Below are positions 25,608-62,428 of a stretch of 64,000 nucleotides of DNA, in pieces. This stretch comes from an uncultured Gammaproteobacteria bacterium (lineage in GTDB: Bacteria; Patescibacteriota; Microgenomatia; Levybacterales; GWA1-39-11). Numbering within the stretch: the stretch's first letter is position 1; each line of letters starts with the position of its first letter. The position numbers and the translations under genes were made by a program. The stretch lies in the NCBI GenBank assembly GCA_964651815.1, contig CAZYWG010000005.1:27053-91052 (forward strand), in the 5' to 3' direction. The notes under the pieces are model-generated. The model saw only the letters and a program-made list of their open reading frames with translations. It was not told where the DNA came from and did not search any database.

Positions 25608-26366
25608 CTATTCGTGTATCTTATCATAATAGTGAGTTATTTTTAATCGATAAAACACAGCTGTTGTATCCCAAAGCATCCAAAATATCACTCTCCAAAA
25701 CGAAGCCGACGTAATACTACTCGCGTTGTTGAAGTTTAGCTTTATCGGGGACTCTATAATATTTGTGTACCCTAATTTTTGCGCAACGGCAAGAACTTCA
25801 ATATCAAAAGCAAATCTTTTTATAGCAATTCGAGAAAATACCTCTTTTGCCACATTTTTCCTGAAAATCTTAAGTCCCACTTGAGTATCCTTTATTTTGT
25901 ATCCAAATAAAAGGTGAGTAATCATTCTATACCCCCATGATAATATTCTTCTTATAAAAGGGTAGTTTACTTTCGAATCCGGATGCAATTTGCTACCGAC
26001 AACAATATCAGCATCACTGAGTTGCATTAAATCCAATGCTACTGAAAGCTCTGATGGCTCAAGATCCATACCTGCATCAATAAAACCTACCACATCTCCC
26101 GTAGCCTTTAAGATTCCATATTTTACAGCATACCCTTTTCCTCTATTTTTCTCATATCCTAACACGGTCAGATTTTTTATATTTGTCTTTTTTGAATTTT
26201 TAAACGTATCGTCTAAAAAACCATCCACAACAACAATAATTTCATATTCGTAATGTAAAAGAGATAAGGCATTGTTTATATTTTTAATATCACGCTCGAT
26301 TGTCTTTTGTTGTTTATAAGCGGGAATAACTATAGAAATTTTGTTTATTTTAGGAGTTTCTGGCAC
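25608..26366 (-). CDS. GT2, a DPM1/CsbB/GtrB-like polyprenyl-phosphate sugar synthase.
   Basis: 252 aa with ISIVIPAYKQQKTIERDI...EIIVVVDGFLDDT, NRGKGYAVKYG and GFIDAGMD. It is short and single-domain like DPM1-type enzymes, and it lies adjacent to a MOP flippase. Confidence 0.7.
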   Translation of the reverse strand: MPETPKINKISIVIPAYKQQKTIERDIKNINNALSLLHYEYEIIVVVDGFLDDTFKNSKKTNIKNLTVLGYEKNRGKGYAVKYGILKATGDVVGFIDAGMDLEPSELSVALDLMQLSDADIVVGSKLHPDSKVNYPFIRRILSWGYRMITHLLFGYKIKDTQVGLKIFRKNVAKEVFSRIAIKRFAFDIEVLAVAQKLGYTNIIESPIKLNFNNASSITSASFWRVIFWMLWDTTAVFYRLKITHYYDKIHE

Positions 26367-27609
26367 GCGGATAGTATAGCAAAAGAGAAATTAGAAGTAC
26401 AAATGTAACAATTATTGAAACATAAATTACTTGAGTTATATTCTCGTGAAACAAGACAATTAAAAGTATTTGAGAAATTGCCGCTACAGCTACCGGGATT
26501 GAAGTCATTGTTTTATGTATAGATAAATAAAAATTTGCGAGTAGTGAGCAAATTGAATATAAGGACATAAAAATCGCAAACAAGCCAAGATACTCTGCAA
26601 CAGCTAAATACTTAGGGCCAAAGAGAAGACCTACCATCAATTTTGACTCGGCAAAGTAAATTAACGTTATAAAAACACATATAAATAATGTAATTAAAAA
26701 TCCCCAAAGTAGGAATTTTAAATACTTCTCTCCATTAGCGTGACTTTCTGAAGCCATAGGAAATATTACCAAAACTATAGGAGAGGCACCAAAATATATA
26801 ATCTTCCCAAGAACAGATAGCGCAGAATAGTATCCGGAGTTTACGCTACTCAAAAAGTGTCTTACAAGAATGACGTCTGTTGTAAAAAGAGAAGTTAATG
26901 CAAGGGTTGTCACAAAAGTCGGTAATGCAAATTTAATCAACTCTTTTTTGTGCGGAAAACTGGAAGTTAAAGATAGTTTTCGTTTTAACAAACTTTTTAT
27001 CAAATAATACGAAAGAAAAAGCGCTAACAAAAAACCAATCCCTATTGAAGCAAACGCTCCCTCCACCCTGAACCCTAAATAAACAAGAATTACGCCGAGC
27101 ACTAATTTTATTCCTGTCTCGATGAAACTCAGAACACTAAAATTGAAGAAAGAGGACATCCCTTGAATAGTACTTTTGTTTAAAACATAAACCAGATTTA
27201 TTAAAAAAGTTATTGAAAGCAAAAACACAAGCAGAAAAGATGAGAGATGGAGAAAGTTTTTAATAAAAGGGGAGAACAAAATCAATAAAACGCTTATTCC
27301 TGATCCATACAATATAATTTTTCCTAGCAAATAATTGTAAAAGTCTGAAATTGAAGCGTAATCTTTTTTCCCTTTATATCTGGAAACAAATTTGACTATT
27401 ACAAAAGTGAGGGCAAGAGTCGGGACAAATAAAATATAAAGAAGCGATATCAAACTTTCGAGTGCTCCGTAAAATGAGACTCCAAGCATCCTACCCATAA
27501 GTAAGTGATAAAAATAATTTCCAAAGTTTAGAAAACCCGTTCCCAAAAATACCCAGAAAGTTGCGGAAATAAAATTGTTCGAAAGTGTTTTTTTAAGTAG
27601 TGCTTTCAT
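26350..27609 (-). CDS. MOP-superfamily (Wzx-like) polysaccharide flippase.
   Basis: 419 aa with about 12 predicted hydrophobic segments. The Gly-rich helices are typical of 'polysaccharide biosynthesis protein' flippases. Confidence 0.6.
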   Translation of the reverse strand: MKALLKKTLSNNFISATFWVFLGTGFLNFGNYFYHLLMGRMLGVSFYGALESLISLLYILFVPTLALTFVIVKFVSRYKGKKDYASISDFYNYLLGKIILYGSGISVLLILFSPFIKNFLHLSSFLLVFLLSITFLINLVYVLNKSTIQGMSSFFNFSVLSFIETGIKLVLGVILVYLGFRVEGAFASIGIGFLLALFLSYYLIKSLLKRKLSLTSSFPHKKELIKFALPTFVTTLALTSLFTTDVILVRHFLSSVNSGYYSALSVLGKIIYFGASPIVLVIFPMASESHANGEKYLKFLLWGFLITLFICVFITLIYFAESKLMVGLLFGPKYLAVAEYLGLFAIFMSLYSICSLLANFYLSIHKTMTSIPVAVAAISQILLIVLFHENITQVIYVSIIVTFVLLISLLLYYPRARNS

Positions 27610-28648
27610 AAATTGTTACTAAATCTTTGATGGATTTTTTGACTGTAAATATTTCTGCTTGTTTTAACCCTTTTTCGGAAAGTTCTTGTCTTAATTTTCC
27701 ATCGTTAATAAGTTTAGATATACCATTTGCTATGTCTTTCGAATCAAGTGCATCTACATAATAAACGGCATTTCCCCCAACTTCCTCAAGGCTTCCCTCT
27801 TTTGTAGTTATCACGGGACACCCACAATTCATAGCTTCTAGAACAGGCAATCCAAAACCTTCATAAATTGAAGGCATTACAAGGGCAGAAGCTAAATTGT
27901 AAATTTTTATCAAATCGACATTTGGAACAAAACCAAGCTTAACAAACTGTGTAGTATTTATTTCTCGTAAAACTTTTTTTAAATCATCATTCCATTTGTT
28001 TGAAGAAACATCTGACATTTGACTACCCCAAATTTTTCCCACCATAACTAAGGTGACATTTGTTTTCTTAACAGCTTCAACTAGTCTCGATAAATTTTTA
28101 TTCCATGTTGCATCCCCTACATATAAAATGAAACTCTCGGGCAAATTATATTTTTTTTGAATTTGAGATGTTTTTATTTCGTCTAATTTAAGTTTTTTAA
28201 ACGTTTGGTCTGCAGCGAGATATACAGTCTTCACTTTGTTATCCGATACACCGATTATCCTCTGTATGTCTTTTTTTGAACAATTTGAATCAGTAATAAC
28301 ACAACTCGCTTTTTTTAAAAGTCTTTTTTGAACTTGCCATTTCATGTTACCTTTAAAACCAGCCGGAAAGTGATCAGGGAACGCAATTGGCGTTAAATCA
28401 TGAACAGTAACTACAAATTTTTGGGGAGATTTAAATGGAAGCGTTAAGAAAAAAGGGTCAAAATAAGGATAGTGAATTAAATCAGCATTTTTGGGAAATG
28501 ACTTATCTTCAACAAAAACATACTCGTTTTTTCCATCATACTTTGCAAGGTTTTGAATAAGCATATTAATGTACGCACCAACACCACGAACCTTGTGAGC
28601 AGAATTAGAACTTTTAATCACGGGAGAGATATCTATAGCAATCTTCAT
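27593..28648 (-). CDS. GT4 family glycosyltransferase.
   Basis: EGFGLPVLEAMNCGCPVITT (E-x7-E) and VTLVMVGK. Confidence 0.8.
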   Translation of the reverse strand: MKIAIDISPVIKSSNSAHKVRGVGAYINMLIQNLAKYDGKNEYVFVEDKSFPKNADLIHYPYFDPFFLTLPFKSPQKFVVTVHDLTPIAFPDHFPAGFKGNMKWQVQKRLLKKASCVITDSNCSKKDIQRIIGVSDNKVKTVYLAADQTFKKLKLDEIKTSQIQKKYNLPESFILYVGDATWNKNLSRLVEAVKKTNVTLVMVGKIWGSQMSDVSSNKWNDDLKKVLREINTTQFVKLGFVPNVDLIKIYNLASALVMPSIYEGFGLPVLEAMNCGCPVITTKEGSLEEVGGNAVYYVDALDSKDIANGISKLINDGKLRQELSEKGLKQAEIFTVKKSIKDLVTIYESTT

Positions 28649-30327
28649 TCTTTAATTATATCAATAGTTTTAAAACTTATTAATGCAATAACTAGAATCG
28701 TTCCTAAGAAATATAGATATGATATCTTTTGCACTAACGTACTATCGAGCCATATATTAATTGAGTGATTTCCGGGGGGAATTCTAAGCAAAATTAACCC
28801 TTTCTCATTCATTACTTTTAGATTTTTACCATCTATTTTTGCACTCCAACCGGGAAAATAAGCTGTATTAACTCTTATAATAGATGTTGTATTTAGTATA
28901 GCTTTAAAAGTATATGACGATGTACGCTCAAATATCTCCTTAATATTTCCGTCTCCTGAAGTAATCTCAATTTTATGTTTTGCTTTTTTCGGAATCTGAA
29001 TTAACCACTTTGTGTTAAATACATTTCCTGGACTATTTGTTCCGTCTGTAAAATTAGACCTTGCAAGATAATAGGCATCGTTCCTCTTATGATAAAATGG
29101 TGCCTTTGCATAATTAAGGGTCAATCCCACAGAGATTATAATTAACAAAAGTGATACAAACGTTTGTAATTTTTTCTTTTTCATAAACAAATCGTTGCTA
29201 ACTAACGCTCCGGCAACAAATGAACAAATAAGTATTTCCAAACTTAAAAGCCTCCAAGGAAATTGAAAGTAGTTAATTAGTGGGACATTGCGCCAAAACC
29301 AAAAAGAATATGGAGTCATAAGGAAAAAAACAAAAATAAATAAAGCAATTAAGAACGCCAATAAAATTCTTTGTTTCTTAAGTTTAAACATGAGAAAGAA
29401 GGAGATTATTATCGCAAAAATGTTTACAATACCTATTTGAACTGACATTGGGTTCAACAGATCGTTAGGTGAAAGTCCAAACCCCCATGAAGGTATAATT
29501 AATTGATATATTTCTGAGAAATTATGAGTTATATCAAATATTTGCAGTCCCCCGACGTAACTTGTCTCTAATATTGCTGGTAACCAAAAAGGTGAAGCAA
29601 TTCCAAAACCAAGCGCAATAATTATTCCCAAATTTAGGATTCCATTTCTTTTATTTTCTAGTCGTGTAATGATAAACAACGCATATAAAACAAAGAACAA
29701 GAAAAAGATCAGAGCTAGGATGTTATGTGCCAAAATTAACAAACCCAAAGATAAACAAGACAGAATCATAAAACGTCGCTTTCCCGTTTCACAAAAAGTC
29801 ATGTAACTCCAAAGTAACGCGGGAAATATTCCAAGACTCATCACCTCCCCAACCGAACCTCTTACATAAACATCGACAAAGTGATATGGTGAAAAAGTAT
29901 AGAATGTTGCACATACTACACCACCTAATTCTCCCCAATATTTTCTTGACCATAGATAAAAAAAAATAGATCCGAAAATTGTTGTAATCGCCATATCCAA
30001 TTTAAAAGAATCTATAAATCCAAATCCAATTATGTGAAAAATGCAGGCCAAGTAGTTTGGCAGTGGATAATTATAGGAAAACAAAGGAATTCCAAACCCA
30101 TTGTTGAAGTCCGGAGCCCACCTGGGATATAAAATTCCGTCTGAAAGAACTTTGTAGAATTGTGTAAATCTTAAAACGTGGTATTCTCCATCATGAGTCG
30201 GCGGAATTCCATAATTATGCAAATTGAATACCGCAATAAAGGAAATAATTGTTACTGATGCAAGAAATTTATACTTTGTAAATAACGCCTTCATTATTAT
30301 TGAAAAGTTTTTTAAAGTTTTTATCAA
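28645..30327 (-). CDS. Family B polytopic membrane protein (YfhO-superfamily-like GT-C candidate), paralog B1.
   Basis: N-terminal motif THDGEYHVLRF...LYPRWAPDFNNGFGIPLFSYNYPLPNYL. C-terminal module YFPGWSAKIDGKNL...GLILLRIPPGNHSINIW followed by a TM anchor. The start is ambiguous (Met1 or Met12). Confidence 0.65.
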   Translation of the reverse strand: MIKTLKNFSIIMKALFTKYKFLASVTIISFIAVFNLHNYGIPPTHDGEYHVLRFTQFYKVLSDGILYPRWAPDFNNGFGIPLFSYNYPLPNYLACIFHIIGFGFIDSFKLDMAITTIFGSIFFYLWSRKYWGELGGVVCATFYTFSPYHFVDVYVRGSVGEVMSLGIFPALLWSYMTFCETGKRRFMILSCLSLGLLILAHNILALIFFLFFVLYALFIITRLENKRNGILNLGIIIALGFGIASPFWLPAILETSYVGGLQIFDITHNFSEIYQLIIPSWGFGLSPNDLLNPMSVQIGIVNIFAIIISFFLMFKLKKQRILLAFLIALFIFVFFLMTPYSFWFWRNVPLINYFQFPWRLLSLEILICSFVAGALVSNDLFMKKKKLQTFVSLLLIIISVGLTLNYAKAPFYHKRNDAYYLARSNFTDGTNSPGNVFNTKWLIQIPKKAKHKIEITSGDGNIKEIFERTSSYTFKAILNTTSIIRVNTAYFPGWSAKIDGKNLKVMNEKGLILLRIPPGNHSINIWLDSTLVQKISYLYFLGTILVIALISFKTIDIIKE

Positions 30328-32104
30328 GGAACTTTAAATTGGCTAGCGATTCATTTTTAGCAAAATTGTTTTTATAAATTATAATATATTTTACGTTTTG
30401 TGATTTTAGGATATTTAATATTTCTAGTTTATTTTTCCCCGCTAAAATCTCTTCCCTCTGTTTGATTCTTTCATTCGGGTCTCCCCCAGACGTGAATATT
30501 ACGTGTTCTATCCCAAGAAACGTTTTTTTCCCAACTATTGATGCCGGATCATAAATATCTCCATTAGTTATGCTGAGCTCTTCCGGTTTTATATGTTTGT
30601 CCATCCAGCTCCCAATTGCCGTGTATTTGTAATCTTGGATTCGCGCATAAACATCATTTTTCACAACTAGTAAATGAAGTGCACCTGATAAACTAATTAA
30701 AACAATAAAGACTGCAGCCATTATTTTGTTAAACATTGCCCCTTTTATTAACTTGTAAATACCCCAGGCGACAAACATATCAAAGCAGATTATCCACACA
30801 TTAAAAAACTTATGGTTATCAAAAATATCTTTTGCGAATTGAAATGAACAAGCAAGAATGAAAAGAACTGAAAAACAATAAAACATCTTTTTTTGAAAAG
30901 TATTTGAGCTGAAAAAGGATATGACAAAAACAGGAGGCGCGAACCCCAAATTCCATATCCAAAACATAATAAATCTTGTAATCGATAGGTTATCCGCAAC
31001 AAGAAATCCGGGTCTTAGTAAAATCGAATTGCTAGAAGTAAGTCTTATCAATAAAAATTGTGGTCCTGCTACAAAAATCGCACCTAAGATTGTTGGTATA
31101 ATATTTTTCCTAAATTCTTTAAAAAGTATCGCAATGAGCAAGAGCACCAAGATGATACATAAAATTATTGACTCATGCCAAAAAACAAAAAGTCCGATCA
31201 ATATGCCTAAAAAAATCTGATGGCGCCTGAATAACTCAGTTGATTTAGAAATCGATATCAGGATAATAAAAAAACAAAAAGCGAGCGCAAATATAATGTG
31301 TCTTTGATTAAGAAGCACATTGACATTCAAAAAATATCTATCTATTAACACTCCAAAGAAATTAACTGCCGGATAGGAATTGTGATTATAAAGATTTTTA
31401 AGTGAAATACCCATTTTTTGAAATATCTCAATAAATGATAAGTCTCCATTAAAAATAAATAGAAAGATTGTAAGTGCGCCTACAAAACGATTTTTAAAAA
31501 TTTTGTTGGTAAACTCTATGACAGCCGACACAAGAGCTAAAAAGGAAAAAGAACTTATAAGATTAACTGCGTAGTCAATTCTAAGACCCAGATATTCTAG
31601 GATGCCGATATAAAAATCATGTATAAAATGATACATAAGATCCTTACCCCCAAAAAACGGGACTTCAGGAATGTAATTACCTCCGGTGGTTAACAATCTC
31701 GCAAAAGGAATATGTGTTCCAAAATCCCAGTAAATATTTGATTCGATCAAAAATATGTGTTTTGAAACTTCATATGACAATGATCTCTCAAAAACCCCAA
31801 AGGTTAGTAGAAAAAGAATTAAATACAAAACATGTACTTTAACTAGCGTTTGTTTTTTAATTACTTTAAATGCTTTTTTATATGTAAAAATGATATTTAA
31901 AACTGATACGACAAAATAAATTGTGAGAGAAAGAGATAAGTTTTTTGTAATTATTAAAAGTACAACAATTAATGAGATGCTAATAACAGATCCACAAATA
32001 AATGAAGTTGCAATAAATATTTTTTTGAAATTTTGAGGTAAAAAAAATATCGAGGCAACTAAACCATTGTAAATAATGGATAAAAGAAACAAAACCCAGT
32101 ACAT
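30269..32104 (-). CDS. Polytopic membrane protein with a C-terminal soluble domain; unclassified GT-C-like candidate.
   Basis: 611 aa. The N-terminal roughly 480 aa have many TM segments. The C-terminal roughly 130 aa are hydrophilic. Confidence 0.5.
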   Translation of the reverse strand: MYWVLFLLSIIYNGLVASIFFLPQNFKKIFIATSFICGSVISISLIVVLLIITKNLSLSLTIYFVVSVLNIIFTYKKAFKVIKKQTLVKVHVLYLILFLLTFGVFERSLSYEVSKHIFLIESNIYWDFGTHIPFARLLTTGGNYIPEVPFFGGKDLMYHFIHDFYIGILEYLGLRIDYAVNLISSFSFLALVSAVIEFTNKIFKNRFVGALTIFLFIFNGDLSFIEIFQKMGISLKNLYNHNSYPAVNFFGVLIDRYFLNVNVLLNQRHIIFALAFCFFIILISISKSTELFRRHQIFLGILIGLFVFWHESIILCIILVLLLIAILFKEFRKNIIPTILGAIFVAGPQFLLIRLTSSNSILLRPGFLVADNLSITRFIMFWIWNLGFAPPVFVISFFSSNTFQKKMFYCFSVLFILACSFQFAKDIFDNHKFFNVWIICFDMFVAWGIYKLIKGAMFNKIMAAVFIVLISLSGALHLLVVKNDVYARIQDYKYTAIGSWMDKHIKPEELSITNGDIYDPASIVGKKTFLGIEHVIFTSGGDPNERIKQREEILAGKNKLEILNILKSQNVKYIIIYKNNFAKNESLANLKFLDKNFKKLFNNNEGVIYKV

Positions 32105-33216: not shown

Positions 33217-33228
33217 ATAGTTGCTTGA

Positions 33229-35533: not shown

Positions 35534-35560
35534 GGAATAATAATACCGTTTCTTGACTAA

Positions 35561-43393: not shown

Positions 43394-45102
43394 TTTGTAA
43401 TTGACATAACCTTAAATGCCGCAGTGTTATCGCTTCTCTTAATAATCGCTATTTTTTCGACTCCTTCACTCGGCGTCTCACATTGCCCATCATCTACATA
43501 TAAAATTCCTTTTTCTCCAACTAATTTTGTTACTAAAATACCCGTTTTTTTATCAGTATCTTGGTACGCCCTGAGTGGACACCCATCTTTTGATATATGA
43601 TACTTATCAAATGAAACGCTTCCATAATCCTGGCCTATTGTATTCTTTTTAAGAATATTTTGAACAATTTTTGGATCATAACTGTTGTAGAAAAAAATAA
43701 ACATTGAAGGACTTCCGTATGAATCTGAAATTACTACCTTTTTATATTTAAGTGTGTATTTGTTTAGAGTTGACACCAATTCGCGGTATCCTTCTTCGCG
43801 AAACCAAGGCCTATGAACAACCTGCTGGACGTAGTAAGAATAAAGATAGAAAGATAAACTATATGCAATTACAACAGCAACACAAAACATTGCAAATCTG
43901 AATACCCACTTATTTTTAAAACTTGTAAAAAAATTATAAATTTCACACAAACCAAGCGCCGAAATAATTGATAGAGCGGGAAAAATAATAAGAGTTCGTT
44001 GGAGATTTGGCACATCGTCAAAAGTCAGAGCACTTCCCACAGGTGCGAGAGCCACCCAACCAAGAATTAATACTCCCAACTTTTTGTCATTTCTAAATAA
44101 GCTCCAAATACCCAAAAATAAAAGGGGAATATCAAAAAAATACAAAATTCCCATATCAGGAACTCTATATCTTGCCGGCAATCCTTGATCAGTAAAGAGA
44201 AAAGAATATGAAAAATGTTGAAAATAATTTTGTGCAAATGTTGTTGAATAATTGAGAATTTTATTATGAAAAACCCGGGCAATCTGTGGCGGAACATTCA
44301 TCACCCCATCTTCTCTAAGTTCTTCATTTAATACCAGCTGTGTTTGAGGATTCTGAAATATAGATAATGTCCTTAGCCTGAAGGAGAGAGTTGGCGAAAG
44401 AATTATTAATGCAACAGGAATAATTATTAAAAGAATGTATAAAGCAATGGGGCTAAAAAATTTTTTGACTCCGCTTTTTTTATTCGCAAATAAAGTCACA
44501 ACTAACAATATCGGAATAAAAAGTGGCAGAAAACTTCTGGGTGCTTGGTACGTCAAAAGGGTTATTAAAAGAGAAAGATAACTTAGAATAAGAAGATAAA
44601 ATTTATTCTTCTCATTCCATAATAAAAATAACCAGATTCCAAGAGATATAAAAAATACAACTATAACATTCTCCGTTGAGACACGCGATAAGTTAATATT
44701 CCACGGAGAAATTGCGATAAAAAATGCTGCAAATATTGCAATAGTTTCTGAGTTTTTAAACTTTGAAAAAAGTTTATTAGTAAGTAAAAAGGTTGTCAGA
44801 ATAGTTAAGCTTCCAAACAACGCTGCAGCAAACCTTACAGAAAATTCATTCAAACCAAAAAGAATTATAAAAGGAATTGAAAAATACGAATAACCCGCCG
44901 GACTATAAAGAAAAGACTTAAAGTGAATGGGTAGAAAACCGCCGGTAATCTCACTCCCAGTTTTGAGTATCGAATAAGCGTTATACCCGAGGTATGCTTC
45001 GTCTGTGTGAAAGCCTAATGGGATTAAACCAAGTTTGTAAAACCGGAGAGCTGTACCAAGTAAAAAAATGATCAATAAAAAAACATATACTTTTTTCGTC
45101 AT
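43390..45102 (-). CDS. PMT_2/ArnT-like GT-C glycosyltransferase, tandem copy 1 of 4.
   Basis: FYKLGLIPLGFHTDEAYLGYNAYSILKTGSEITGGFLP. Confidence 0.7.
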   Translation of the reverse strand: MTKKVYVFLLIIFLLGTALRFYKLGLIPLGFHTDEAYLGYNAYSILKTGSEITGGFLPIHFKSFLYSPAGYSYFSIPFIILFGLNEFSVRFAAALFGSLTILTTFLLTNKLFSKFKNSETIAIFAAFFIAISPWNINLSRVSTENVIVVFFISLGIWLFLLWNEKNKFYLLILSYLSLLITLLTYQAPRSFLPLFIPILLVVTLFANKKSGVKKFFSPIALYILLIIIPVALIILSPTLSFRLRTLSIFQNPQTQLVLNEELREDGVMNVPPQIARVFHNKILNYSTTFAQNYFQHFSYSFLFTDQGLPARYRVPDMGILYFFDIPLLFLGIWSLFRNDKKLGVLILGWVALAPVGSALTFDDVPNLQRTLIIFPALSIISALGLCEIYNFFTSFKNKWVFRFAMFCVAVVIAYSLSFYLYSYYVQQVVHRPWFREEGYRELVSTLNKYTLKYKKVVISDSYGSPSMFIFFYNSYDPKIVQNILKKNTIGQDYGSVSFDKYHISKDGCPLRAYQDTDKKTGILVTKLVGEKGILYVDDGQCETPSEGVEKIAIIKRSDNTAAFKVMSITK

Positions 45103-46748
45103 ACAAGCACATTGTTAATCTTCTTTTTGAAAACCCACATCAGAATTAAAACAATTATAGAAAACAAGCTTATATAATCTGCAAATTGCCTCGAGCGAGT
45201 TTCTTGAAATTTAATCTCGGCCTTATGCTTTCCGTTCGGAACATTAAAAGTTATTAATCCCCTATGGTTCATATCCTGAAATTGAATAAGTGTTTCCTGT
45301 TTATCTACATAAACTTTCCATCCTGGAAAGTAAACTGTATTGTCAACTATAGTCATCTTTGTTTTTGCTAATAGAGTAAGAACATGCAAGTTGCTTTTCT
45401 TCTTTTCGCTTTCTATTTCACCTTTTCCGGAAATTATTTCATATTGGTTATTGGCCCTCTTCCAAAAATCACCAGCAGTCCATATAGAACTCGTTCTCAA
45501 ATGATAATCCGTAGTCCCTTGATAAGAATTGTAAAAATTATCCGTATGATTTACATACCCTTGGACTTTTATAAATGGGGCGGAAAAAATGATAAACAAA
45601 ACCATAGCTAAAAGTAGTAGGGTTTTACTTTTAATGTAATTCATTATGTAAAAAATTACTATGCAAGCACTAAAACCTGAAAGCGCGGTAAACCGCCAAG
45701 GATAACCCATTTGCCTCACTACTGGAAGATGCTCCCATAAAATTTTTGAGTATTCCGTAGTCATAAAAGCTGCCCCTAAAAAAATTATTAGCCAAAAAAC
45801 TATTTCCTTCCTATACTTCTTAATTCTTGATAAAAATAAAATTGTAAGCAGTGGTAAAACAAGATATAAAATACCTATCTGCGGTGAAAGCCCGTTTTTT
45901 AAATTGATATCCGGACCAAATCCCCACGGAGAATAAAGTAAGTGAAAAATAGGTACAAAATTTGTCTTATATAAAGTGTCGACCATAAGTTTTTCGTAGA
46001 CAAACTTCCCTTCCAGAATTGCAGGTAACCAGAAAAAACATGACACACCTAACCCGACTAAAAAAATGAACAAAGAACGAATAAATCCATATAGGCTTTT
46101 GGCAAAAACAATAGAATAAAGAAAAAATACAGGTGAAAATATGGCTGCCATCCCATTATGGGATAATACAAAGAAGCCGTAAGCAAAACTTCCTAAAATT
46201 ATAGCTGTGATACGTTTCTCTTTTTGGGCATTATCAATTGACAAAAAAATCAATGGGATAAAAATAAAACTCAACATTTCAGCAACGTCCCCTCTCACAA
46301 ATGTATCAAGGAGCCTATAAGGCAGAACTAAATATATTATTGATGTTGCGAAGGCAATTTCTTTCTTTGAATTTTTTGAAAGCCAATGGAAAAGTAAAAT
46401 GGGACCAAGCAAGAAACTCGCTGACATAATTAACTTATACGTGTTTTCGTATGATATTCCTCCAAAATGAATAAAGCTCGCAAGATAACCTGGTAGTGGA
46501 TAAAAGAAAATAAAAAGAGGAGAACCATATCCATAGTTTAAGTTGCCTGCCCACCTTGGGATCATTTGACCGTCTAAAAAAGCTTTAAAATACGCGGCGA
46601 ATCTTGCTACGTGAGCTTCACCATCCTGCGACATGTAAAAATTTGAATGCAAAATAGGAAACAAAAGAAGCAAGCCTATCAAAAAAATAAGAAGACTATA
46701 AAAATTTTCAACAATTAATTTACGAACCTGTATTTTAAAAGTTTCCAT
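45099..46748 (-). CDS. Family B polytopic membrane protein (YfhO-superfamily-like GT-C candidate), paralog B2.
   Basis: SQDGEAHVARF...MIPRWAGNLNYGYGSPLFIFFYPLPGYL at the N-terminus. YFPGWKVYVDKQETLIQFQDMNHRGLITFNVPNGKHKAEIKF near the C-terminus, followed by a TM anchor. Confidence 0.65.
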   Translation of the reverse strand: METFKIQVRKLIVENFYSLLIFLIGLLLLFPILHSNFYMSQDGEAHVARFAAYFKAFLDGQMIPRWAGNLNYGYGSPLFIFFYPLPGYLASFIHFGGISYENTYKLIMSASFLLGPILLFHWLSKNSKKEIAFATSIIYLVLPYRLLDTFVRGDVAEMLSFIFIPLIFLSIDNAQKEKRITAIILGSFAYGFFVLSHNGMAAIFSPVFFLYSIVFAKSLYGFIRSLFIFLVGLGVSCFFWLPAILEGKFVYEKLMVDTLYKTNFVPIFHLLYSPWGFGPDINLKNGLSPQIGILYLVLPLLTILFLSRIKKYRKEIVFWLIIFLGAAFMTTEYSKILWEHLPVVRQMGYPWRFTALSGFSACIVIFYIMNYIKSKTLLLLAMVLFIIFSAPFIKVQGYVNHTDNFYNSYQGTTDYHLRTSSIWTAGDFWKRANNQYEIISGKGEIESEKKKSNLHVLTLLAKTKMTIVDNTVYFPGWKVYVDKQETLIQFQDMNHRGLITFNVPNGKHKAEIKFQETRSRQFADYISLFSIIVLILMWVFKKKINNVLV

Positions 46749-47452
46749 AAGGCAACTGCACCATCGGTAACGGTATTTAGTTTTTTTCCTTCTTCGTATC
46801 CACGAGGTGTTGTTTTTATCGGAATTTCTTTAATTTTTAAACCTTTTTTTAAAAGCTTGGCAGTAATCTCAGGTTCAAAGTCAAAACGTTTAGAGGAAAG
46901 ATTCATATTTAGCACGGCTTTTCTAGGGAAAAGCTTATAACACGTTTCCATATCTGTGATCCACTGTCCGTACAATACACTTGTGATAAGACTTAAAAAT
47001 CTATTACCAATATAATGAATTAAAAACTGTGGTCTTCTTTCTTCATTTTTAAAGTGAGGAAGCCTATTTAGCCGGGTTCCATAAACAACGTCATTTTTTT
47101 CTTTAATATAGGAAAATAATATGGGGATGTCTGTTGGGTCGTATTCTAAATCGGCATCTTGAATAATAATATAGTCTCCCGTTGCATCATTTATTCCCGT
47201 GCGGACTGCTGCTCCCTTTCCCAAGTTTTCCCCATGCTTTATAAACTTAAAATTACTTGTTTTCGAATTATTTGAGTTTTTGTTAAAAAAACCGGTCTCT
47301 GTAATTTGCTCTACAGTAGAATCACTTGAACCATCATCAACCACAATTACTTCAACCGTAACATTTTTGATTATTACCTTTTTTACACGGTGTAAAACTT
47401 TGGAAATGGTTTTCTCTTCGTTAAAAACCGGAATAATTATTGATAACTTCAT
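46715..47452 (-). CDS. GT2, a DPM1/CsbB/GtrB-like polyprenyl-phosphate sugar synthase.
   Basis: 245 aa with LSIIIPVFNEEKTISKVL...VIVVDDGSSDST, ENLGKGAAVRTGINDATGDYIIIQDADLEYDP and a C-terminal TM-less tail, as in DPM1-like enzymes. Confidence 0.75.
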   Translation of the reverse strand: MKLSIIIPVFNEEKTISKVLHRVKKVIIKNVTVEVIVVDDGSSDSTVEQITETGFFNKNSNNSKTSNFKFIKHGENLGKGAAVRTGINDATGDYIIIQDADLEYDPTDIPILFSYIKEKNDVVYGTRLNRLPHFKNEERRPQFLIHYIGNRFLSLITSVLYGQWITDMETCYKLFPRKAVLNMNLSSKRFDFEPEITAKLLKKGLKIKEIPIKTTPRGYEEGKKLNTVTDGAVALWKLLKYRFVN

Positions 47453-51807: not shown

Positions 51808-51854
51808 AATCGTTTGTATAAACATTCGCACCGTATGTTTTATTTTATCAGCTA

Positions 51855-51883: not shown

Positions 51884-51889
51884 ATTTAT

Positions 51890-56739: not shown

Positions 56740-58405
56740 AAAGTCTTTTTGGAAAAATTAAAAGTCCAATTATTATAAAAGCCGATACAATAGAAATTAA
56801 TTCCGACAAAATCCTAATTTTTGTATCCTTAAATATAACGTCAACTGTGTGGTTTCCCGAAGTTATAAAATAAGTAATCAAACCACGATTTGCAGGATCT
56901 TGAAACTGAACCTGATCATCTTTAACACCATCAATATAAACTGTCCAATTGGGAAAATATAAAGTGTTCTCACGAATTTCACTATTGGTAGATGCAATTA
57001 TTCGATATTTATGGTGTGTTGAATTTCTTGAAGTCAGATCAATTTTAGCCTGTCCTCCAATTACTTCTGCCTGTGCCGCGGGTTTTTTCTCCATGAATCT
57101 GACTGACCAAATCGGTGCACTTTCCCCAGTATCAGTCGTGCCATTATAAACTCCCGAATAAAAAGATTCAGGTTTTATAATATATCCGATTGGTTGCCAG
57201 TAATTCCATTGAAAGATAAGAATGAAGAGCATGGAAAATAAAAGAAGAATGAATTGATTTTTTTTACTAGTTTTATTAACAACTATGGCTCCCATAACTG
57301 CTGCGGCAAAAATGGCAGTTGCAAGAAATCTCCATGGGAATTGAAATTTTTCAAGAATGCTAAAAGTTTTCCAAACAAAAGTTGAAATGGAAAGCATAAT
57401 AAAAACGCTCCCTAAAAAGTACAGAATAACACTTAAGTATAATATTAGACTTGTCTTTTCTTTATTGAAACGCTTGTAAGCAGTAGCCAAAAATGCCAAG
57501 ACTGCAATCCATTGTAAAAGTCCTAATTGGACAGAAAAACTTCCTGACAATCCATAAATCCAAGACCCATAAAACAAATCTTTTATCTGGACAAAATGGT
57601 AAAACGCCTCATCTTTTGTCACTATATCTCTCAATGTGTATTTACCTTCTAAAAGCGCCGGAACCCAAAAAAAAGCAGCTAAACCAAATCCTAAAATTAA
57701 CGCACTCATAAATTGATACGCAAGGATTTTTCTGTTTTTAGAATTGTAGATTAAATAAACGCCATACAAAGTTATAAATGGTAAAAACATAAGACTCATA
57801 GCGTTATGCGCTAAGATAAGAGCGCAAATTGAAACCGATATTCCGGCAAAATATGCAGAATTAATTTGCTTAAGTCTTGTCACAGATTCAGCGTTATTTG
57901 AACTCTTAAGCATGAAAAATAAAATTAGCGGAGGGAAAATAAAAGCTACTTGTTCTCCAATATCTCCCCTAATATAAAAGTCCACAAATCTATATGGTGC
58001 AAAATTATAAAGAACTGAGCCTATTGTTGCTGCAGTTTCCCCTAAAAATTCATTCAGCCAAAGATACATCGTGATTCCACTTAGAATGAATGCCATACCC
58101 ATAACTAATTTGAATGAATCAACAAAGGAAAATCCCAAAAAATGAAATAATGAAGAAACATAAGAAGGTAAAGGGTAAAGAAACGTTAAAATAGGATGTC
58201 CGTATCCCCAATTTAAATTTCCTGCCCATCGAGGAATAATATTACCCTCTGAAAGTGACAAATAAAAATTAGCTATTCTGGCAACATGATCCTGCCCGTC
58301 GTGGGTGAGTGGAAGACCTGTGTGAAACAGAGGAACAACAGGAATAAAACTGAGAACCAGAATTATAATAATGCCAAAATGCTTTTTAAATAATTTCTCC
58401 AACAT
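56723..58405 (-). CDS. Family B polytopic membrane protein (YfhO-superfamily-like GT-C candidate), paralog B3.
   Basis: THDGQDHVARI...IIPRWAGNLNWGYGHPILTFLYPLPSYV at the N-terminus. YFPNWTVYIDGVKDDQVQFQDPANRGLITYFITSGNHTVDVIF near the C-terminus, followed by a TM anchor. Confidence 0.65.
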   Translation of the reverse strand: MLEKLFKKHFGIIIILVLSFIPVVPLFHTGLPLTHDGQDHVARIANFYLSLSEGNIIPRWAGNLNWGYGHPILTFLYPLPSYVSSLFHFLGFSFVDSFKLVMGMAFILSGITMYLWLNEFLGETAATIGSVLYNFAPYRFVDFYIRGDIGEQVAFIFPPLILFFMLKSSNNAESVTRLKQINSAYFAGISVSICALILAHNAMSLMFLPFITLYGVYLIYNSKNRKILAYQFMSALILGFGLAAFFWVPALLEGKYTLRDIVTKDEAFYHFVQIKDLFYGSWIYGLSGSFSVQLGLLQWIAVLAFLATAYKRFNKEKTSLILYLSVILYFLGSVFIMLSISTFVWKTFSILEKFQFPWRFLATAIFAAAVMGAIVVNKTSKKNQFILLLFSMLFILIFQWNYWQPIGYIIKPESFYSGVYNGTTDTGESAPIWSVRFMEKKPAAQAEVIGGQAKIDLTSRNSTHHKYRIIASTNSEIRENTLYFPNWTVYIDGVKDDQVQFQDPANRGLITYFITSGNHTVDVIFKDTKIRILSELISIVSAFIIIGLLIFPKRLYVTKN

Positions 58406-58423
58406 ATTGTCAACTCAAGTATT

Positions 58424-59335
58424 CTAGATCGAAAAACTTCCACGGCCAAATCTACGTAAATAATAATCACGAACTCCTTTTTTTTGCCATGGCCTTCCGG
58501 AAGCAAGAATCTTAAAACTTTCACGAATTAACGCTACCTTAGTTCTTATAGGTGCATAGCGTTCGCCAAATAATAGTCGATTTCGTGTGATGTAATAATC
58601 CTGAAGGATCGAACCGCTTCCGGATGATCCGGCGTTTATATGCCACATAACAGCTTTTGGTTCATAAAGAATTTTGTATCCTGCTTTTTTAATTCTTTGA
58701 GTCAAATCCGCATCCTCATAATACAGAAAGAATTTGTCATCAAAAAGCCCAATTTTATTTAAAACTTCTGTTTTTATCAAAAAACAACAACCCGTTGCTA
58801 AATCAGTCTCTTTTTTTACGTCGAATTGCCCTTGATCCACTTCGTCAACTCCAATATTGTGTCCTATCAAATTGTCCCAATCCATTTCTCCACCCGCATA
58901 CCAAATGACCTTCCCAAGATCCGAATTTTTATATCTATCTTTATGAAATTCAAAACCTTTAGCAAAATATATTTTAGGCAAAACCCCTCCAACATTTTCA
59001 CCATTTGCCGCTCCTACTAAATTCCCAATCAAATTTTCACTAACTTCTGTATCGTTATTGAGAAGCATTACAAAATCCGCATCGTGGTTAATTCCATATC
59101 TCATACCCTCATTACATCCTCCGGTGAATCCTAAGTTCTTCTCATTTTCAATAAATATTACATACGGGAATTTCTTTTTTATAATATCTAGATACCCATC
59201 ATTTGAAGCATTATCTACAACTACAATTTCTATCTTTATCTCTTTTGTTTTTTTATTTTTAGCAAGCGACTCAAGACAAGCAACTGTTTTCTCTCCACCT
59301 TTGTAATTCAAGATTACTACGTAAACGCTTTTCAT
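58424..59335 (-). CDS. GT2 family glycosyltransferase.
   Basis: VYVVILNYKGGEKTVACLESL...IVVVDNASNDG, GFTGGCN and a C-terminal YYEDADL motif. Confidence 0.8.
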   Translation of the reverse strand: MKSVYVVILNYKGGEKTVACLESLAKNKKTKEIKIEIVVVDNASNDGYLDIIKKKFPYVIFIENEKNLGFTGGCNEGMRYGINHDADFVMLLNNDTEVSENLIGNLVGAANGENVGGVLPKIYFAKGFEFHKDRYKNSDLGKVIWYAGGEMDWDNLIGHNIGVDEVDQGQFDVKKETDLATGCCFLIKTEVLNKIGLFDDKFFLYYEDADLTQRIKKAGYKILYEPKAVMWHINAGSSGSGSILQDYYITRNRLLFGERYAPIRTKVALIRESFKILASGRPWQKKGVRDYYLRRFGRGSFSI

Positions 59336-60267
59336 TTTTTGATTTTTGAGGAAGATATTTTTCTTGCAGTTTTTAAAAGTATTTTTTTAAAGGGGTTTTT
59401 TGCGTTATCAATTAAATTTGAGGTAGCCCAATATTTTACCTTTTCTCCCGAGTTTTTTAACTCCTCTTTAACATTTTTCAAGAAAGTTGGTTCGTTAACC
59501 TCTATAAACTTATTTTTCTCCCAAAGTTTGGCAAAAACAACCTCCATATAAAATGCTTGCAGTATTGAAAGAACCAAACCATGTAAACCGTCTCTGAATC
59601 CTTTTTGTAAAAAAAATGTTTTAACAAAATCGTCAACTGGAAATCGGATAGCATCTAAAAAATTGAAATTGTAATCTTTCACAAGATTTTCTGCTTCAAT
59701 ATCAGTATAGTTATTTAGTTTTTTTATGTATTGTGAAATTGAATTGTAATTATTATGTAAAATTGGACTTTCAATTTTTATTGTTTCACCATTTACAGTT
59801 AATGCGTGATGGACCTCGTTTTTTTCAAACTTCCCTTTTCCGCGGCGAAAAAATTTCAACTGATAATCTGGCCACCACATATCACTCTGAATCCATTTAC
59901 CGAATATTATATTTTTGCGTGGAACCCATATACCGCTAACATTATTATTTGTGTCGTCGATTGTTCTTTTTATTTCGTCAGCGAGTTCTTCAGAAATTTG
60001 TTCATCTGCATCCAAGCTTAAAATCCAATCGCCTGAGGCTTTTGAAAAACCAAAATTTTTTTGTAAGTCTATTTCCTGTGGATTATTTTTTTGAGAATAT
60101 ATTTTTTTAGTATATTTTTTGGCAAAATCAAGCGTTTTATCGGAAGATTCATGATCTATAACAATAATCTCATCTGCCAAATTTTCAACAGAAGTAAGGC
60201 AAGAATCAATGTTTTCTTCCTCATTATACGCAGACACAACCACAGATAAAGTGTTTTTTTTGCTCAT
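59332..60267 (-). CDS. GT2 family glycosyltransferase (paralog group with 34751..35533 and 52528..53283).
   Basis: LSVVVSAYNEEENIDSCLTSVENLADEIIVIDHESSDKTLDFAKKY. Confidence 0.8.
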   Translation of the reverse strand: MSKKNTLSVVVSAYNEEENIDSCLTSVENLADEIIVIDHESSDKTLDFAKKYTKKIYSQKNNPQEIDLQKNFGFSKASGDWILSLDADEQISEELADEIKRTIDDTNNNVSGIWVPRKNIIFGKWIQSDMWWPDYQLKFFRRGKGKFEKNEVHHALTVNGETIKIESPILHNNYNSISQYIKKLNNYTDIEAENLVKDYNFNFLDAIRFPVDDFVKTFFLQKGFRDGLHGLVLSILQAFYMEVVFAKLWEKNKFIEVNEPTFLKNVKEELKNSGEKVKYWATSNLIDNAKNPFKKILLKTARKISSSKIKK

Positions 60268-61706
60268 TTTTTGATTATCCGCCTAATATCACTTACTACT
60301 TCTTTCCCTTTAAAGGCGTACATTATACTAAAGTAAATTCCGCCACAAACAGTGCTCATAATAATTAATTCCGGCAGACTTCTTACAAAATAGGCGCAAG
60401 AAAAATATGTGATTATTCCCATTATACCAGCTGATACTATTGGTTGATAAATACTACCCCAAAATTTGAAGTCCACAATTTTTCTTACCAAATGTACTGT
60501 ATATAAAATAGTAAGTGTCACCAAAAATGAGGCAATTGCAACCCCATTGTAACTGTAAAAGTGAATCATAAGGGGTGTTATAATCCATATTAAAATCGTC
60601 CACACAACCATAAGTTGCAGGGTCCATTTAACTTTCCCGTTGGAGTCCAAAACATTAATTAGTATTCCGGAAAGAGAAGATACCATTGCGTTAAGCGAGA
60701 AAAAAACAACAGAAATATACGCACCTTCCCATTTATTATGCCAATGTGGAAAATAACGGATAAGTGACGGCCCCGCAATTATTAATCCTGTCAAAAGAGG
60801 GAACATAATAAGCGCAACAAAAAACAAAGATTTCTCAATTGACAGCCTCAGCATTTTCTTATCATCTTGAAACCTTGCGTAGGTAGAAAAAGTAACACGA
60901 GTCACGCTATCAACAAAGTATCTGTATGGATAAAAAGCAAGGCTTTGGGCAACACCAATAAATCCTATCTGAGCAAAGCTTAAGAACCTCGCCAAAATTA
61001 CCGTTAAAAAATCGTCCTTAATTGTTGCAAGAACGTTTTTTGCTTGGAATTGTAACCCAAATTTCAAATGCACAAGAGACGCCTTATGAACTCCAACCCC
61101 AAATTCCCAAGGTGAAACCAGAAAATAAAATGGAACACTTGAAATACTTGAGACTAAAAACGCCCAAGTATACGCAGTTATTCCAAAACGATTCAAAACC
61201 AAAGTTAAAAGAATAAGATTAAACACTACAGATTCCACAAGTTGTGGAATAACTAGTTTGTGAAAATGAATTTTACGCTCAAGAAGTATTGACGGAATCA
61301 CTTTAAATGAAGAAAGAAAAATTGTAAAGACTAGAGCAAGCAACAATCCGTAGGCATCATTATTTAGTCGCAATAATGAAGAGAGCGGTGACCTTAAAAT
61401 CAGTGTTAAAAAGAATACCCCCCCAGTTAGCGCGGCTTGTAATGTAAAACTTGTGCGCAGATCCTCACGCGTCAATTCTTCCTTTTTTTGGACTAATGCA
61501 GCACCAAAACCAAAATCCGTAAAAAAACTAATGACCCTTTGAATTGCTATAACTACCGTGTATATTCCAACTTGAGCAGGGGTGAAAATACTAAAAATTA
61601 TGATTGAAGTACCTACTGTCAAAACATCAAGAATGACAGTTCTTGAAATAAATGCAACAATCCCCTTTAGTGTTTGCTCAATAATTGAAGAATTAGAATT
61701 TTCCAT
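60264..61706 (-). CDS. MOP-superfamily (Wzx-like) polysaccharide flippase.
   Basis: 480 aa with about 12-14 hydrophobic segments and the typical 'polysaccharide biosynthesis protein' topology. It lies immediately 3' of a DPM1-like GT2. Confidence 0.6.
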   Translation of the reverse strand: MENSNSSIIEQTLKGIVAFISRTVILDVLTVGTSIIIFSIFTPAQVGIYTVVIAIQRVISFFTDFGFGAALVQKKEELTREDLRTSFTLQAALTGGVFFLTLILRSPLSSLLRLNNDAYGLLLALVFTIFLSSFKVIPSILLERKIHFHKLVIPQLVESVVFNLILLTLVLNRFGITAYTWAFLVSSISSVPFYFLVSPWEFGVGVHKASLVHLKFGLQFQAKNVLATIKDDFLTVILARFLSFAQIGFIGVAQSLAFYPYRYFVDSVTRVTFSTYARFQDDKKMLRLSIEKSLFFVALIMFPLLTGLIIAGPSLIRYFPHWHNKWEGAYISVVFFSLNAMVSSLSGILINVLDSNGKVKWTLQLMVVWTILIWIITPLMIHFYSYNGVAIASFLVTLTILYTVHLVRKIVDFKFWGSIYQPIVSAGIMGIITYFSCAYFVRSLPELIIMSTVCGGIYFSIMYAFKGKEVVSDIRRIIKK

Positions 61707-61708
61707 TT

Positions 61709-62428
61709 TTAAATCCTAGCGTTATGAATATCTGACCACAAAATTAGACTCTCTAAAACTGCCCTGACAACAACAGGAAGATTTGCACCTGTCTGAAGTC
61801 CAAATTGCCTTTGATAATGACTAACTTCAACTTGAGTTATTTTTAATTTTTTTCTTTTTGCTTTTGCCAAAATTTCAGTAGTTACCATTGCGCCCTCCGA
61901 CCTCAAAGGCATAATCTGGCTTAGTGCTCCTCGTGTAAACATCTTAAAACCGCAATCAATATCCTTAAACCAGAATCCAAACAATACAAAATCCCAAATT
62001 TTAAGTAAGTTCATGAGGAGCAATCTTTTTCCAAGATTATGGTCACGCCTTTTTTTTCTAAATCCAATAACCATATCTGAGTTATTAATCTCATCAACAA
62101 ATTTTGTGACCTCTGAAAAATCAAATTGTCCGTCGCCATCAGTAAAAACAATATATTTATATTTTGCAGCATCAAAACCCGCTTTCAGTGCAGCCCCATA
62201 TCCGCGGTTAGGCTTATGAGACACAACTTTTATATTTTTGTTTTGTTTAGCCAAACCTTTCCCTTCCTCAAGGGTACCGTCGGACGACCCATCATCAATT
62301 ATTATTACTTCCCACACATTTGCCACGTTTGGTGCTACAGCAATAGCCTTAGAAACAACTTGACTTACATTTTTCTCCTCATTCCAGAAGGGGAAGAAGA
62401 TGGATAACTCAGGAAGTTTTTTTGCCAT
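61709..62428 (-). CDS. GT2, a DPM1/ArnC/GtrB-like polyprenyl-phosphate sugar synthase.
   Basis: LSIFFPFWNEEKNVSQVV...VIIIDDGSSDGT...HKPNRGYGAALKAGFDAAKYKYIVFTDGDGQFD. The length of 239 aa fits. Confidence 0.75.
   Translation of the reverse strand: MAKKLPELSIFFPFWNEEKNVSQVVSKAIAVAPNVANVWEVIIIDDGSSDGTLEEGKGLAKQNKNIKVVSHKPNRGYGAALKAGFDAAKYKYIVFTDGDGQFDFSEVTKFVDEINNSDMVIGFRKKRRDHNLGKRLLLMNLLKIWDFVLFGFWFKDIDCGFKMFTRGALSQIMPLRSEGAMVTTEILAKAKRKKLKITQVEVSHYQRQFGLQTGANLPVVVRAVLESLILWSDIHNARI

Follow-up and report, generated by a model that had tools for sequence, protein, structure and literature searches.

In Streptococcus pyogenes, the GlcNAc side chain of the group A carbohydrate depends on GacI, a cytoplasmic and anchor-less glycosyltransferase of the GT-A fold, on the Wzx-family GacK as the proposed flippase and on GacL, a glycosyltransferase of the GT-C fold (PMC8035078; Rush et al.). 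In Haloferax volcanii, AglD loads mannose on dolichyl phosphate (Dol-P), a MOP-like protein, AglR, is implicated in its flipping, and AglS carries out the transfer outside; the first hexose is attached to Dol-P by AglJ. The ribofuranose three-component system of Citrobacter youngae O1 consists of PPPRS, a MATE flippase and a GT-C of family GT136. Here we compared with these systems a 64 kb stretch of DNA (the window; contig CAZYWG010000005.1 of assembly GCA_964651815.1), in which three short family 2 glycosyltransferases (GT2#1, GT2#2 and GT2#3) lie beside flippase and GT-C genes. The original prediction, made from this DNA alone, had presented them as DPM1/CsbB/GtrB-like synthases of polyprenyl-phosphate (Pol-P) sugars, each next to a flippase or a YfhO-superfamily GT-C, and as a three-component system present several times over. 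Each GT2 does lie in a module of its own, and the three distinct gene modules are conserved across related Patescibacteria. We consider it fairly probable that the GT2s make Pol-P-monosaccharides that feed outward-facing GT-Cs via a flippase.

The three GT2s were found where they had been predicted, on the minus strand (Table 1), as short single-domain proteins of 252 (GT2#1), 245 (GT2#2) and 239 (GT2#3) amino acids. Their gene starts are credible because close homologues are 233-255 amino acids long. The Pfam Glycos_transf_2 model was passed by all of them (69, 115 and 97 bits for GT2#1, GT2#2 and GT2#3 respectively; cutoff 23.3). They are mutual closest paralogs at about 24-32% identity (28% over 201, 32% over 245 and 25% over 175 amino acids), the alignment being full-length for the GT2#2-GT2#3 pair only. 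The remaining eight GT2s of the window form two other subfamilies, GT2-A (at 8598, 14000, 47449 and 58424) and GT2-B (at 22309, 34751, 52528 and 59332). The NCBIfam models matching about 170-240 residues of the three were AglJ, PgfS, ArnC, PpgS and the haloarchaeal Dol-P-hexose transferase. GT2#2 scored 98 bits with AglJ (over residues 3-241), 78 with PgfS and 72 with ArnC; the corresponding values for GT2#3 were 71, 64 and 61 bits. Models of the PgaC and EpsD type matched the generic N-terminal ~100 residues only (residues ~3-120 for PgaC).

The best PDB matches of the single sequences were PfDPMS, ArnC and GtrB, and family profiles of 47-50 homologues each had the same leaders. GT2#1 matched PfDPMS best (5mlz, E 6e-17 over residues 9-211; family profile E 2e-18). 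GT2#2 matched ArnC, DPMS and GtrB at about 1e-13 to 2e-14, compared to 3e-7 for the next unrelated GT2, and its family profile matched GtrB (E 3e-22) and DPMS (E 1.5e-21). The best match of GT2#3 was ArnC (E 7e-15 over residues 5-211; family profile E 8e-20 over residues 5-213). AlphaFold (AF2) models of GT2#1 and GT2#2 (predicted local distance difference test 79 and 88 respectively) have a GT-A fold and were compared with the PDB using Foldseek; the top 11 matches of GT2#1 and the top 25 of GT2#2 were all DPMS, ArnC or GtrB, aligned over ~230-250 columns. Alignment through the C-terminal half was seen with Pol-P glycosyltransferases only, and these also came first in every ranking. All three GT2s carry a D-x(2-3)-[G/C]-[F/Y/L]-K motif, which in the alignments falls on GDYGCMLR in ArnC and on DPVSGFF in DPMS.

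The DPM1-like signature claimed for all three (DDGSSD, then GKG, then D-A/G-D) is exact in GT2#2 (DAD), but GT2#3 has DDGSSD/GYG/DGD and GT2#1 has VDGFLDD/GKG/D97-A-G-M-D101. The DPM1-like class itself was borne out by the hidden Markov models, whose full-length matches were Pol-P glycosyltransferases. The three do not resemble processive or polysaccharide-synthase GT2s: they are only 239-252 amino acids long, carry neither a C-terminal anchor nor a QxxRW motif, and match PgaC at the N-terminus only. Each protein ends with one amphipathic helix; GT2#3 has one internal hydrophobic helix, and no transmembrane (TM) segment was found in GT2#1. By sequence and fold likeness, the three GT2s are putative peripheral, anchor-less Pol-P glycosyltransferases of the DPM1/GtrB/ArnC class.

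Conservation of the modules was analysed in Levybacteria/Microgenomates-like relatives. In the case of GT2#3 we used 80 metagenome loci encoding 62-77%-identical proteins, with neighbours classified against the annotated proteins of the window. The gene downstream of the GT2#3 orthologue encoded a MOP flippase in 70 of the 70 loci having one, and the gene upstream was of the PF10131 type in 64 of 65. The GT-C/GT2#3/MOP trio was present in 58/58 loci with both flanks, which are not 58 independent events because the sampled relatives are 62-77% identical. Most of the longer loci were ordered PF10131-PF10131-GT2#3-MOP-GT2B-GT2A, and three independently annotated genomes out of three had the same gene order with Pfam labels. 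In the window, GT2#3 is flanked on both sides, by a GT-C upstream and a flippase downstream, an arrangement that the original prediction had missed.

For GT2#2, 80 species-level genome loci were analysed. Most of the Levybacteria-like ones have the order GT4-YfhO-GT2A-GT2#2, followed by runs of PMT_2, PF10131 or YfhO genes. Among the orthologues scoring at least 300 bits (n=37), the next gene was a recognised GT-C in 24 and another polytopic membrane protein in 6; a GT-C lay within two genes in 4, the contig ended in 2, and 1 had none. Consequently, 34 of the 35 orthologues with a downstream gene have a GT-C or polytopic protein at most two genes downstream. The GT2#1 orthologue had a MOP gene 0-2 genes upstream and a GT4 gene downstream in all six related contigs (6/6), and that GT4 was followed by a ~440-amino acid PMT_2 protein in three of them, as in the window. 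The MOP gene directly adjoins the GT2#1 orthologue in one contig (L174); elsewhere RmlC, or RmlC and RmlD, intervenes.

Two GT2s of the window lie beside MOP genes and the third beside a PF10131 gene, all above their Pfam cutoffs, which agrees with the neighbours originally named (Table 1). When the 51 co-directional genes, 13 of them GT-Cs and 2 MOPs, were put in random order, all three GT2s fell beside a GT-C or MOP in 12.5% of the permutations, and both of the only two MOPs fell beside a DPM1-like GT2 in 1.4% (p = 0.014). In-window adjacency is weak (p ~0.13) because 13 of the 51 genes encode GT-Cs and about one in three a GT-C or flippase. We therefore did not rely on adjacency and used cross-genome synteny instead; conservation in other genomes is strong evidence that the pattern is more than chance. 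GT2#1 overlaps the MOP stop by 17 nucleotides, at GT2#2 the overlap amounts to 4 nucleotides with the GT2 upstream and 34 with the GT-C downstream, and GT2#3 overlaps the upstream GT-C by 20 nucleotides and lies 2 nucleotides from its MOP. Such junctions (overlaps of 4-34 or gaps of 2-14 nucleotides) suggest co-translation.

In the relay that we infer, with its substrates, flippase cargo, acceptors, chemistry and direction of flow, each GT2 would move one sugar from a nucleotide sugar onto undecaprenyl (polyprenyl) phosphate at the cytoplasmic face. Flipping the lipid-monophosphate sugar outward would fall to the Wzx-type MOP next to the GT2 in modules 1 and 3. The neighbouring GT-Cs (PF10131, PMT_2 and YfhO; at least 13 in the window) would use this lipid-sugar donor on extracytoplasmic acceptors, candidates being surface or S-layer proteins, pilins and wall polymers. 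GT-Cs use lipid-phosphate-linked donors on the non-cytoplasmic face. As the host is a Patescibacterium, 'extracytoplasmic' is a safer term than the 'periplasmic' used originally. Curated Pfam cutoffs were passed by 13 GT-Cs of the window, namely seven PMT_2, four PF10131 (PTPS_related) and two YfhO proteins. The loop-1 aspartate D34 (DE motif) is invariant in the seven PMT_2 paralogs, and D35 after TM1 is invariant in the four PF10131 paralogs. No lipid-donor synthases besides the three GT2s were detected in the window.

Several observations weigh against this relay, or against the class of its synthases. NCBIfam scores of 41-98 bits lie far below the equivalog cutoffs of 262-529 bits, so the three GT2s are not orthologues of a named enzyme and their sugar specificity is not assignable. 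A hydropathy scan found no C-terminal TM segment in them, unlike in GtrB, CsbB, ArnC and PfDPMS; they would therefore fit, if anywhere, the anchor-less subclass. In that subclass (DPM1 type II, PpgS, GacI) the C-terminal anchor is absent. GT2#1 is the least secure class assignment of the three, because of its non-canonical metal motif and its smaller margin over other GT2 folds. It is without DxD, the D97-A-G-M-D101 segment taking its place and being invariant in 50 homologues; compared to D89-A-D91-L-Q93 of PfDPMS, a Gly (G99) stands in place of D91 and the second Asp is aligned with Q93. Its fold margin over the WrtF fucosyltransferase (rank 12) is small (4.5e-12 vs. 7e-12); for GT2#2 and GT2#3 the margin over other GT2s is clear.

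The surroundings of the GT2s supply further points of this kind, beside the non-independence of the 58 trio loci. A Pfam scan of all 51 large open reading frames (ORFs) and of a 126-amino acid multi-TM ORF (10299-10679) found no GacJ/DUF2304-like partner and no GtrA-type flippase (PF04138), the latter not even at E<=5, the threshold at which unclassified ORFs were rescanned. In the Gac system, GacJ is a small membrane protein that activates the anchor-less GT-A; here, one nearby membrane protein alone is small and conserved, a DUF5652 protein on the opposite strand (51890-52123). No flippase gene adjoins GT2#2. Homologues of GT2#2 in Obscuribacterales, Chloroflexi and Clostridia (45-48% identical) stand amid unrelated genes; no GT-C was found among these neighbours, which were GATase, RecJ, a GH3 enzyme and flotillin, so that the clustering is a feature of this lineage. 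Finally, genes for cytoplasmic GT2-A, GT2-B or GT4 enzymes always accompany GT2#3 and GT2#1, a linkage that would fit an oligosaccharide pathway just as well, and Wzx flippases classically carry undecaprenyl-diphosphate (Und-PP)-linked oligosaccharides.

These last two points are taken up by an alternative in which GT2#3 and GT2#1 would start, in the manner of AglJ, an oligosaccharide on polyprenyl monophosphate. GT2-B and GT2-A (module 3) or two GT4s (module 1) would extend it, the MOP would flip it, and a GT-C would transfer or polymerise it en bloc, as in Haloferax N-glycosylation. We regard this as unlikely. The NCBIfam model that best fits GT2#2 and GT2#3 is AglJ, the enzyme that begins a Dol-P-linked oligosaccharide by adding its first sugar, and the blocks PTPS-PTPS-GT2#3-MOP-GT2B-GT2A and GT4-MOP-GT2#1-GT4 are conserved. 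Wzx-type flippases normally carry oligosaccharides, and MOPs of the Agl15/AglR type are proposed Dol-P-glycan flippases. To begin a classical Und-PP pathway, no priming phosphoglycosyltransferase (PF02397, PF00953) was detected in the 64 kb, but such an enzyme could sit outside the window, as the contig runs beyond it, and the polytopic proteins at 2899-4551, 30269-32104, 32104-33216 and 55570-56739 stay unclassified. Moreover, GT2-B resembles GmaR and SunS, which glycosylate proteins or peptides, and not extenders of lipid-linked glycans. Characterised PMT_2-type GT-Cs transfer single sugars from Pol-P-monosaccharides, and we know of no characterised bacterial polyprenyl-monophosphate oligosaccharide pathway. 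In its full form, this alternative would make PF10131-PF10131-GT2#3-Wzx-GT2B-GT2A and GT4-Wzx-GT2#1-GT4-PMT_2 a haloarchaeal-style polyprenyl-monophosphate oligosaccharide route in Patescibacteria, with a GT2 start, a Wzx flip and en bloc transfer by PF10131 or PMT_2 proteins. That proposal is rather unlikely; if true, it would give a first function for the uncharacterised PF10131 family of GT-Cs.

Quite unlikely is an ordinary glycan cluster, in which the GT2s would act on an Und-PP-linked repeat unit or on protein, the MOPs would be classical Wzx flippases, the likeness to DPM1/GtrB would reflect the shared GT-A core, and the GT-C donors and the priming enzyme would be encoded elsewhere. The N-terminal half of the GT2s is indeed generic (with the family profiles of the three, chondroitin synthase reaches 60-74 bits), yet the C-terminal half aligns with Pol-P glycosyltransferases only, and these lead the rankings. 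GT2#1 is the main case in which this explanation might hold: DxD is missing, WrtF nearly equals GtrB as a fold match, and RmlC and RmlD stand beside GT2#1 in relatives, as in rhamnan clusters. The in-window adjacency (p = 0.13) is not significant on its own, but the GT-C/GT2/MOP order, strictly kept in 58/58 loci, speaks for a functional unit. Neither a priming transferase nor a Wzy/O-antigen ligase, a chain-length regulator or an LCP ligase was detected in the 64 kb, and the 13 GT-Cs need lipid-phosphate donors, for which these GT2s are the sole candidate synthases in the window. Chance pairing in an array made up to one third of GT-Cs and flippases is hardly credible, although shuffled gene orders give all three adjacencies in 12.5% of cases: both of the sole MOPs touch a DPM1-like GT2 (p = 0.014), and dozens of related loci keep these neighbours although other parts have been rearranged, so that the conservation data contradict it.

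Table 1. Coordinates of the three GT2s and of the genes around them (L numbers are our handles for related loci)
Feature	Coordinates	Strand	Evidence	Remarks
GT2#1, anchor-less DPM1/DPMS-like, putative Pol-P-sugar synthase	25608..26366	-	Pfam GT2, PDB, Foldseek	252 amino acids
MOP (Wzx-type) flippase	26350..27609	-	Polysacc_synt_3 44.5 bits, Polysacc_synt 40.7 bits; weak Wzx_EPS match	directly upstream of GT2#1
GT4	27593..28648	-	Glycos_transf_1 109.5 bits	upstream of the module 1 MOP; same position in 5/6 related contigs
PF10131 GT-C	28645..30327	-	45.6 bits	heads module 1; same position in L172, L174, L175
GT4	24484..25593	-	Glycos_transf_1 137.8 bits	downstream of GT2#1; same in 6/6 related contigs
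Short PMT_2 GT-C	23148..24479	-	46.7 bits	443 amino acids; closes module 1; same position in L089, L091, L174
GT2#2, anchor-less GtrB/ArnC/AglJ-like, putative Pol-P-sugar synthase	46715..47452	-	Pfam, NCBIfam, PDB, Foldseek	245 amino acids; DDGSSD and DAD
PF10131 GT-C	45099..46748	-	PTPS_related 50.3 bits	directly downstream of GT2#2
Six tandem PMT_2-type GT-Cs, candidate lipid-sugar users	43390-45102, 41684-43393, 40033-41682, 38345-40036, 36844-38343, 35561-36844	-	PMT_2	
GT4	50679-51752	-	Pfam	conserved block upstream of GT2#2
YfhO GT-C	48384-50675	-	Pfam	same block
GT2-A	47449-48387	-	Pfam	same block
GT2#3, anchor-less ArnC/GtrB-like, putative Pol-P-sugar synthase	61709..62428	-	Pfam, PDB, NCBIfam	239 amino acids; DDGSSD and DGD
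PF10131 GT-C	62409..63959	-	64.8 bits	directly upstream of GT2#3; outside the range of the original prediction
MOP (Wzx-type) flippase	60264..61706	-	Polysacc_synt_3 148.6 bits	directly downstream of GT2#3
GT2-B	59332-60267	-	Pfam	with GT2-A completes PTPS-PTPS-GT2#3-MOP-GT2B-GT2A
GT2-A	58424-59335	-	Pfam	as above
PF10131 GT-C	56723-58405	-	Pfam	further array GT-C
YfhO GT-C	53256-55592	-	Pfam	further array GT-C
Unclassified 7-TM protein	55570-56739	-	no Pfam or NCBIfam match	between the two preceding GT-Cs

In module 1, RmlC lies between the MOP and the GT2#1 orthologue in L089, L090, L091, L172 and L173 (RmlD also in L173); the RmlC/RmlD-like genes of the window are further downstream (15022-16367). 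This neighbourhood in the relatives is a hint that module 1 handles a dTDP-6-deoxyhexose. As to a rhamnosyltransferase role for GT2#1, suggested by the RmlC/RmlD neighbours, models of the rhamnosyltransferase/GlfT1 type match GT2-A and not GT2#1.

In module 2, the label 'YfhO-superfamily' originally given to the PF10131 gene next to GT2#2 is loose. The C-terminus of this protein resembles the YfhO proteins of the window, and its family aligns with the window YfhO pair (hhalign probability 90%, E 2e-6), but it is at least as close to the PMT_2 paralogs (97%, E 1e-10). The six tandem PMT_2 proteins scored 29.8-65.3 bits (cutoff 26.1), and four of them are mutually 30-34% identical. Many relatives have an unclassified protein, absent from the window, directly upstream of the GT2#2 orthologue and mostly between GT2#2 and GT2-A (L015, L016, L020, L023, L026, L028, L030, L032, L035, L037, L039, L040, L042, L045, L049, L053 and L059). 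It comes in two sizes, ~640-670 amino acids with 11-13 TM segments and ~470-480 amino acids with 5-8, and may represent a further GT-C or the flippase that module 2 lacks.

The MOP of module 3 matched the NCBIfam models for MOP flippase family protein (106 bits), O-glycosylation Wzx (65.5 bits) and TuaB (65 bits). The best PDB matches of GT2-B were GmaR and SunS, and GT2-A matched models of the rhamnosyltransferase/GlfT1 type. GT2-B was considered as a further class of Pol-P synthase and rejected, since its best solved relatives glycosylate proteins or peptides. One relative (L175, 2564-4861) encodes a 765-amino acid fusion of an N-terminal GT2-B with a C-terminal PMT_2-type GT-C of 11 TM segments. 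The GT2-B part is the orthologue of the window protein at 34751-35533 (383 bits), which in the window is separate from its neighbour at 35561-36844. GmaR is a flagellin O-GlcNAc transferase; the fusion therefore joins a GT2 of a protein/peptide type, and not a lipid-sugar synthase, to a GT-C.

The window has a G+C content of ~33% and is nearly one co-directional array of 51 minus-strand genes, interrupted by three plus-strand genes only (a 244-amino acid methyltransferase and two small ORFs). Pfam also assigned two Wzx-type MOP flippases, eleven GT2s and five GT4s. The nucleotide-sugar enzymes comprise RmlC/RmlD-like proteins, several epimerase/dehydratases, a nucleotidyltransferase, methyltransferases, acetyltransferases and a carbamoyltransferase. 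The last, at 4555-6357 inside the array, is of the NodU/CmcH type (Carbam_trans_N 135 bits, Carbam_trans_C 202 bits); the window further encodes methyltransferases, of the FkbM type among others, and two hexapeptide acyltransferases, and together these enzymes suggest heavily modified sugars. The DUF5652 protein (77 amino acids, two TM segments) is one of the small plus-strand genes, the second being at 52284-52526. It occupies the same place, between GT2-B and GT4, in GCA_964452165.1, and several other related loci have an unclassified opposite-strand ORF of ~90 amino acids just upstream of GT4; the DUF5652 protein might be a small membrane partner. Six polytopic proteins with 7-13 predicted TM segments had no significant Pfam or NCBIfam match (2-2041, 2899-4551, 10612-13995, 30269-32104, 32104-33216 and 55570-56739). 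Those at 2-2041 and 10612-13995 are mutually related and faintly resemble both the GT-C domain of AftD and the product of the PF10131 gene at 62409-63959, so that the true number of GT-Cs may reach 15 or more.

The window proteins have exact copies in one NCBI contig and in the Logan assemblies of two sequencing runs. Their nearest relatives are metagenome-assembled genomes (MAGs) of Candidatus Levybacteria and other Microgenomates/Patescibacteria, and the host itself is a Patescibacterium of the Levybacteria-like kind. Many GTDB representative MAGs whose synteny is clearly Levybacteria-like, and whose proteins share 57-73% identity with the window protein, are nevertheless titled 'uncultured Gammaproteobacteria bacterium' (L006, L015-L017, L019 and many others); these titles look like a labelling artefact of the submitting pipeline.

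Patescibacteria (candidate phyla radiation) have tiny genomes, live mostly attached to other cells, and their surface chemistry is hardly known. In this host, glycosylation genes fill more than 60 kb, almost entirely on a single strand, and at least 13 of them encode outward-facing GT-Cs. Its three likely donor synthases in conserved modules are small gene sets testable heterologously (for instance a PF10131 GT-C with GT2#3 and Wzx), and the modules offer a first way into the function of the PF10131 PTPS_related family. A search of the literature on GT-C arrays or three-component systems in Patescibacteria/Microgenomates found nothing relevant. The system belongs to a known type of relay for surface glycosylation, here in a lineage not studied before, and is not a new kind of system; because GT-Cs are expected with such donor synthases, current understanding is not overturned. 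What is new is the lineage, how many modules and GT-Cs it has, the part taken by PF10131 and the very tightly conserved six-gene block.

In mycobacteria (Ppm1/PpgS with PimE, MptA-C, EmbA-C, AftA-D and Pmt) and in the endoplasmic reticulum (DPM1/ALG5 with the ALG, PIG and PMT enzymes), few lipid-sugar donors feed many GT-Cs, which assemble glycans beyond the membrane. Like PpgS, the three GT2s are short and anchor-less, and the PpgS model matches all of them across most of their length. However, the mycobacterial and endoplasmic reticulum genes are dispersed and their acceptors known, whereas here the genes form one co-directional array. The Haloferax Agl system is archaeal, uses a dolichol carrier and makes N-linked glycans, and the GT2s are not AglJ orthologues (71-98 bits vs. 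a cutoff of 325). As in Citrobacter youngae O1, the flippase belongs to the MOP/MATE group and is not GtrA, but the donor synthase of that system is a phosphoribosyltransferase and not a GT2.

The CsbB/GtcA/YfhO systems (lipoteichoic acid of Bacillus, Listeria and S. aureus) and the GtrB/GtrA/Gtr* systems (O-antigen glucosylation in Shigella and Salmonella) have the same three roles, GtrB is among the top structural matches, and two genuine YfhO-family proteins are present in the window. The analogy with CsbB/GtrB, a flippase and YfhO drawn in the original prediction thus holds for its logic and not for its parts: those synthases have C-terminal TM helices and a small GtrA/GtcA flippase, whereas here no C-terminal TM anchor and no GtrA were detected in the window, the flippases are Wzx-type MOPs and the GT-Cs beside the GT2s are PF10131 proteins. 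By analogy, GacI/J/K/L appears to be the right comparison and the closest known architecture. Modules 1 and 3 would share with it a clustered anchor-less GT-A synthase of an undecaprenyl-phosphate sugar, Wzx as the proposed flippase and a polytopic GT-C, a likeness of architecture as described for the streptococcal system. They differ from it in that no GacJ/DUF2304 partner was found in the window, the GT-Cs are PF10131 and PMT_2 proteins, and there are several modules with at least 13 GT-Cs. If the relay were confirmed, the GacIJKL-type variant, with an anchor-less synthase and Wzx, would be widespread outside Firmicutes.

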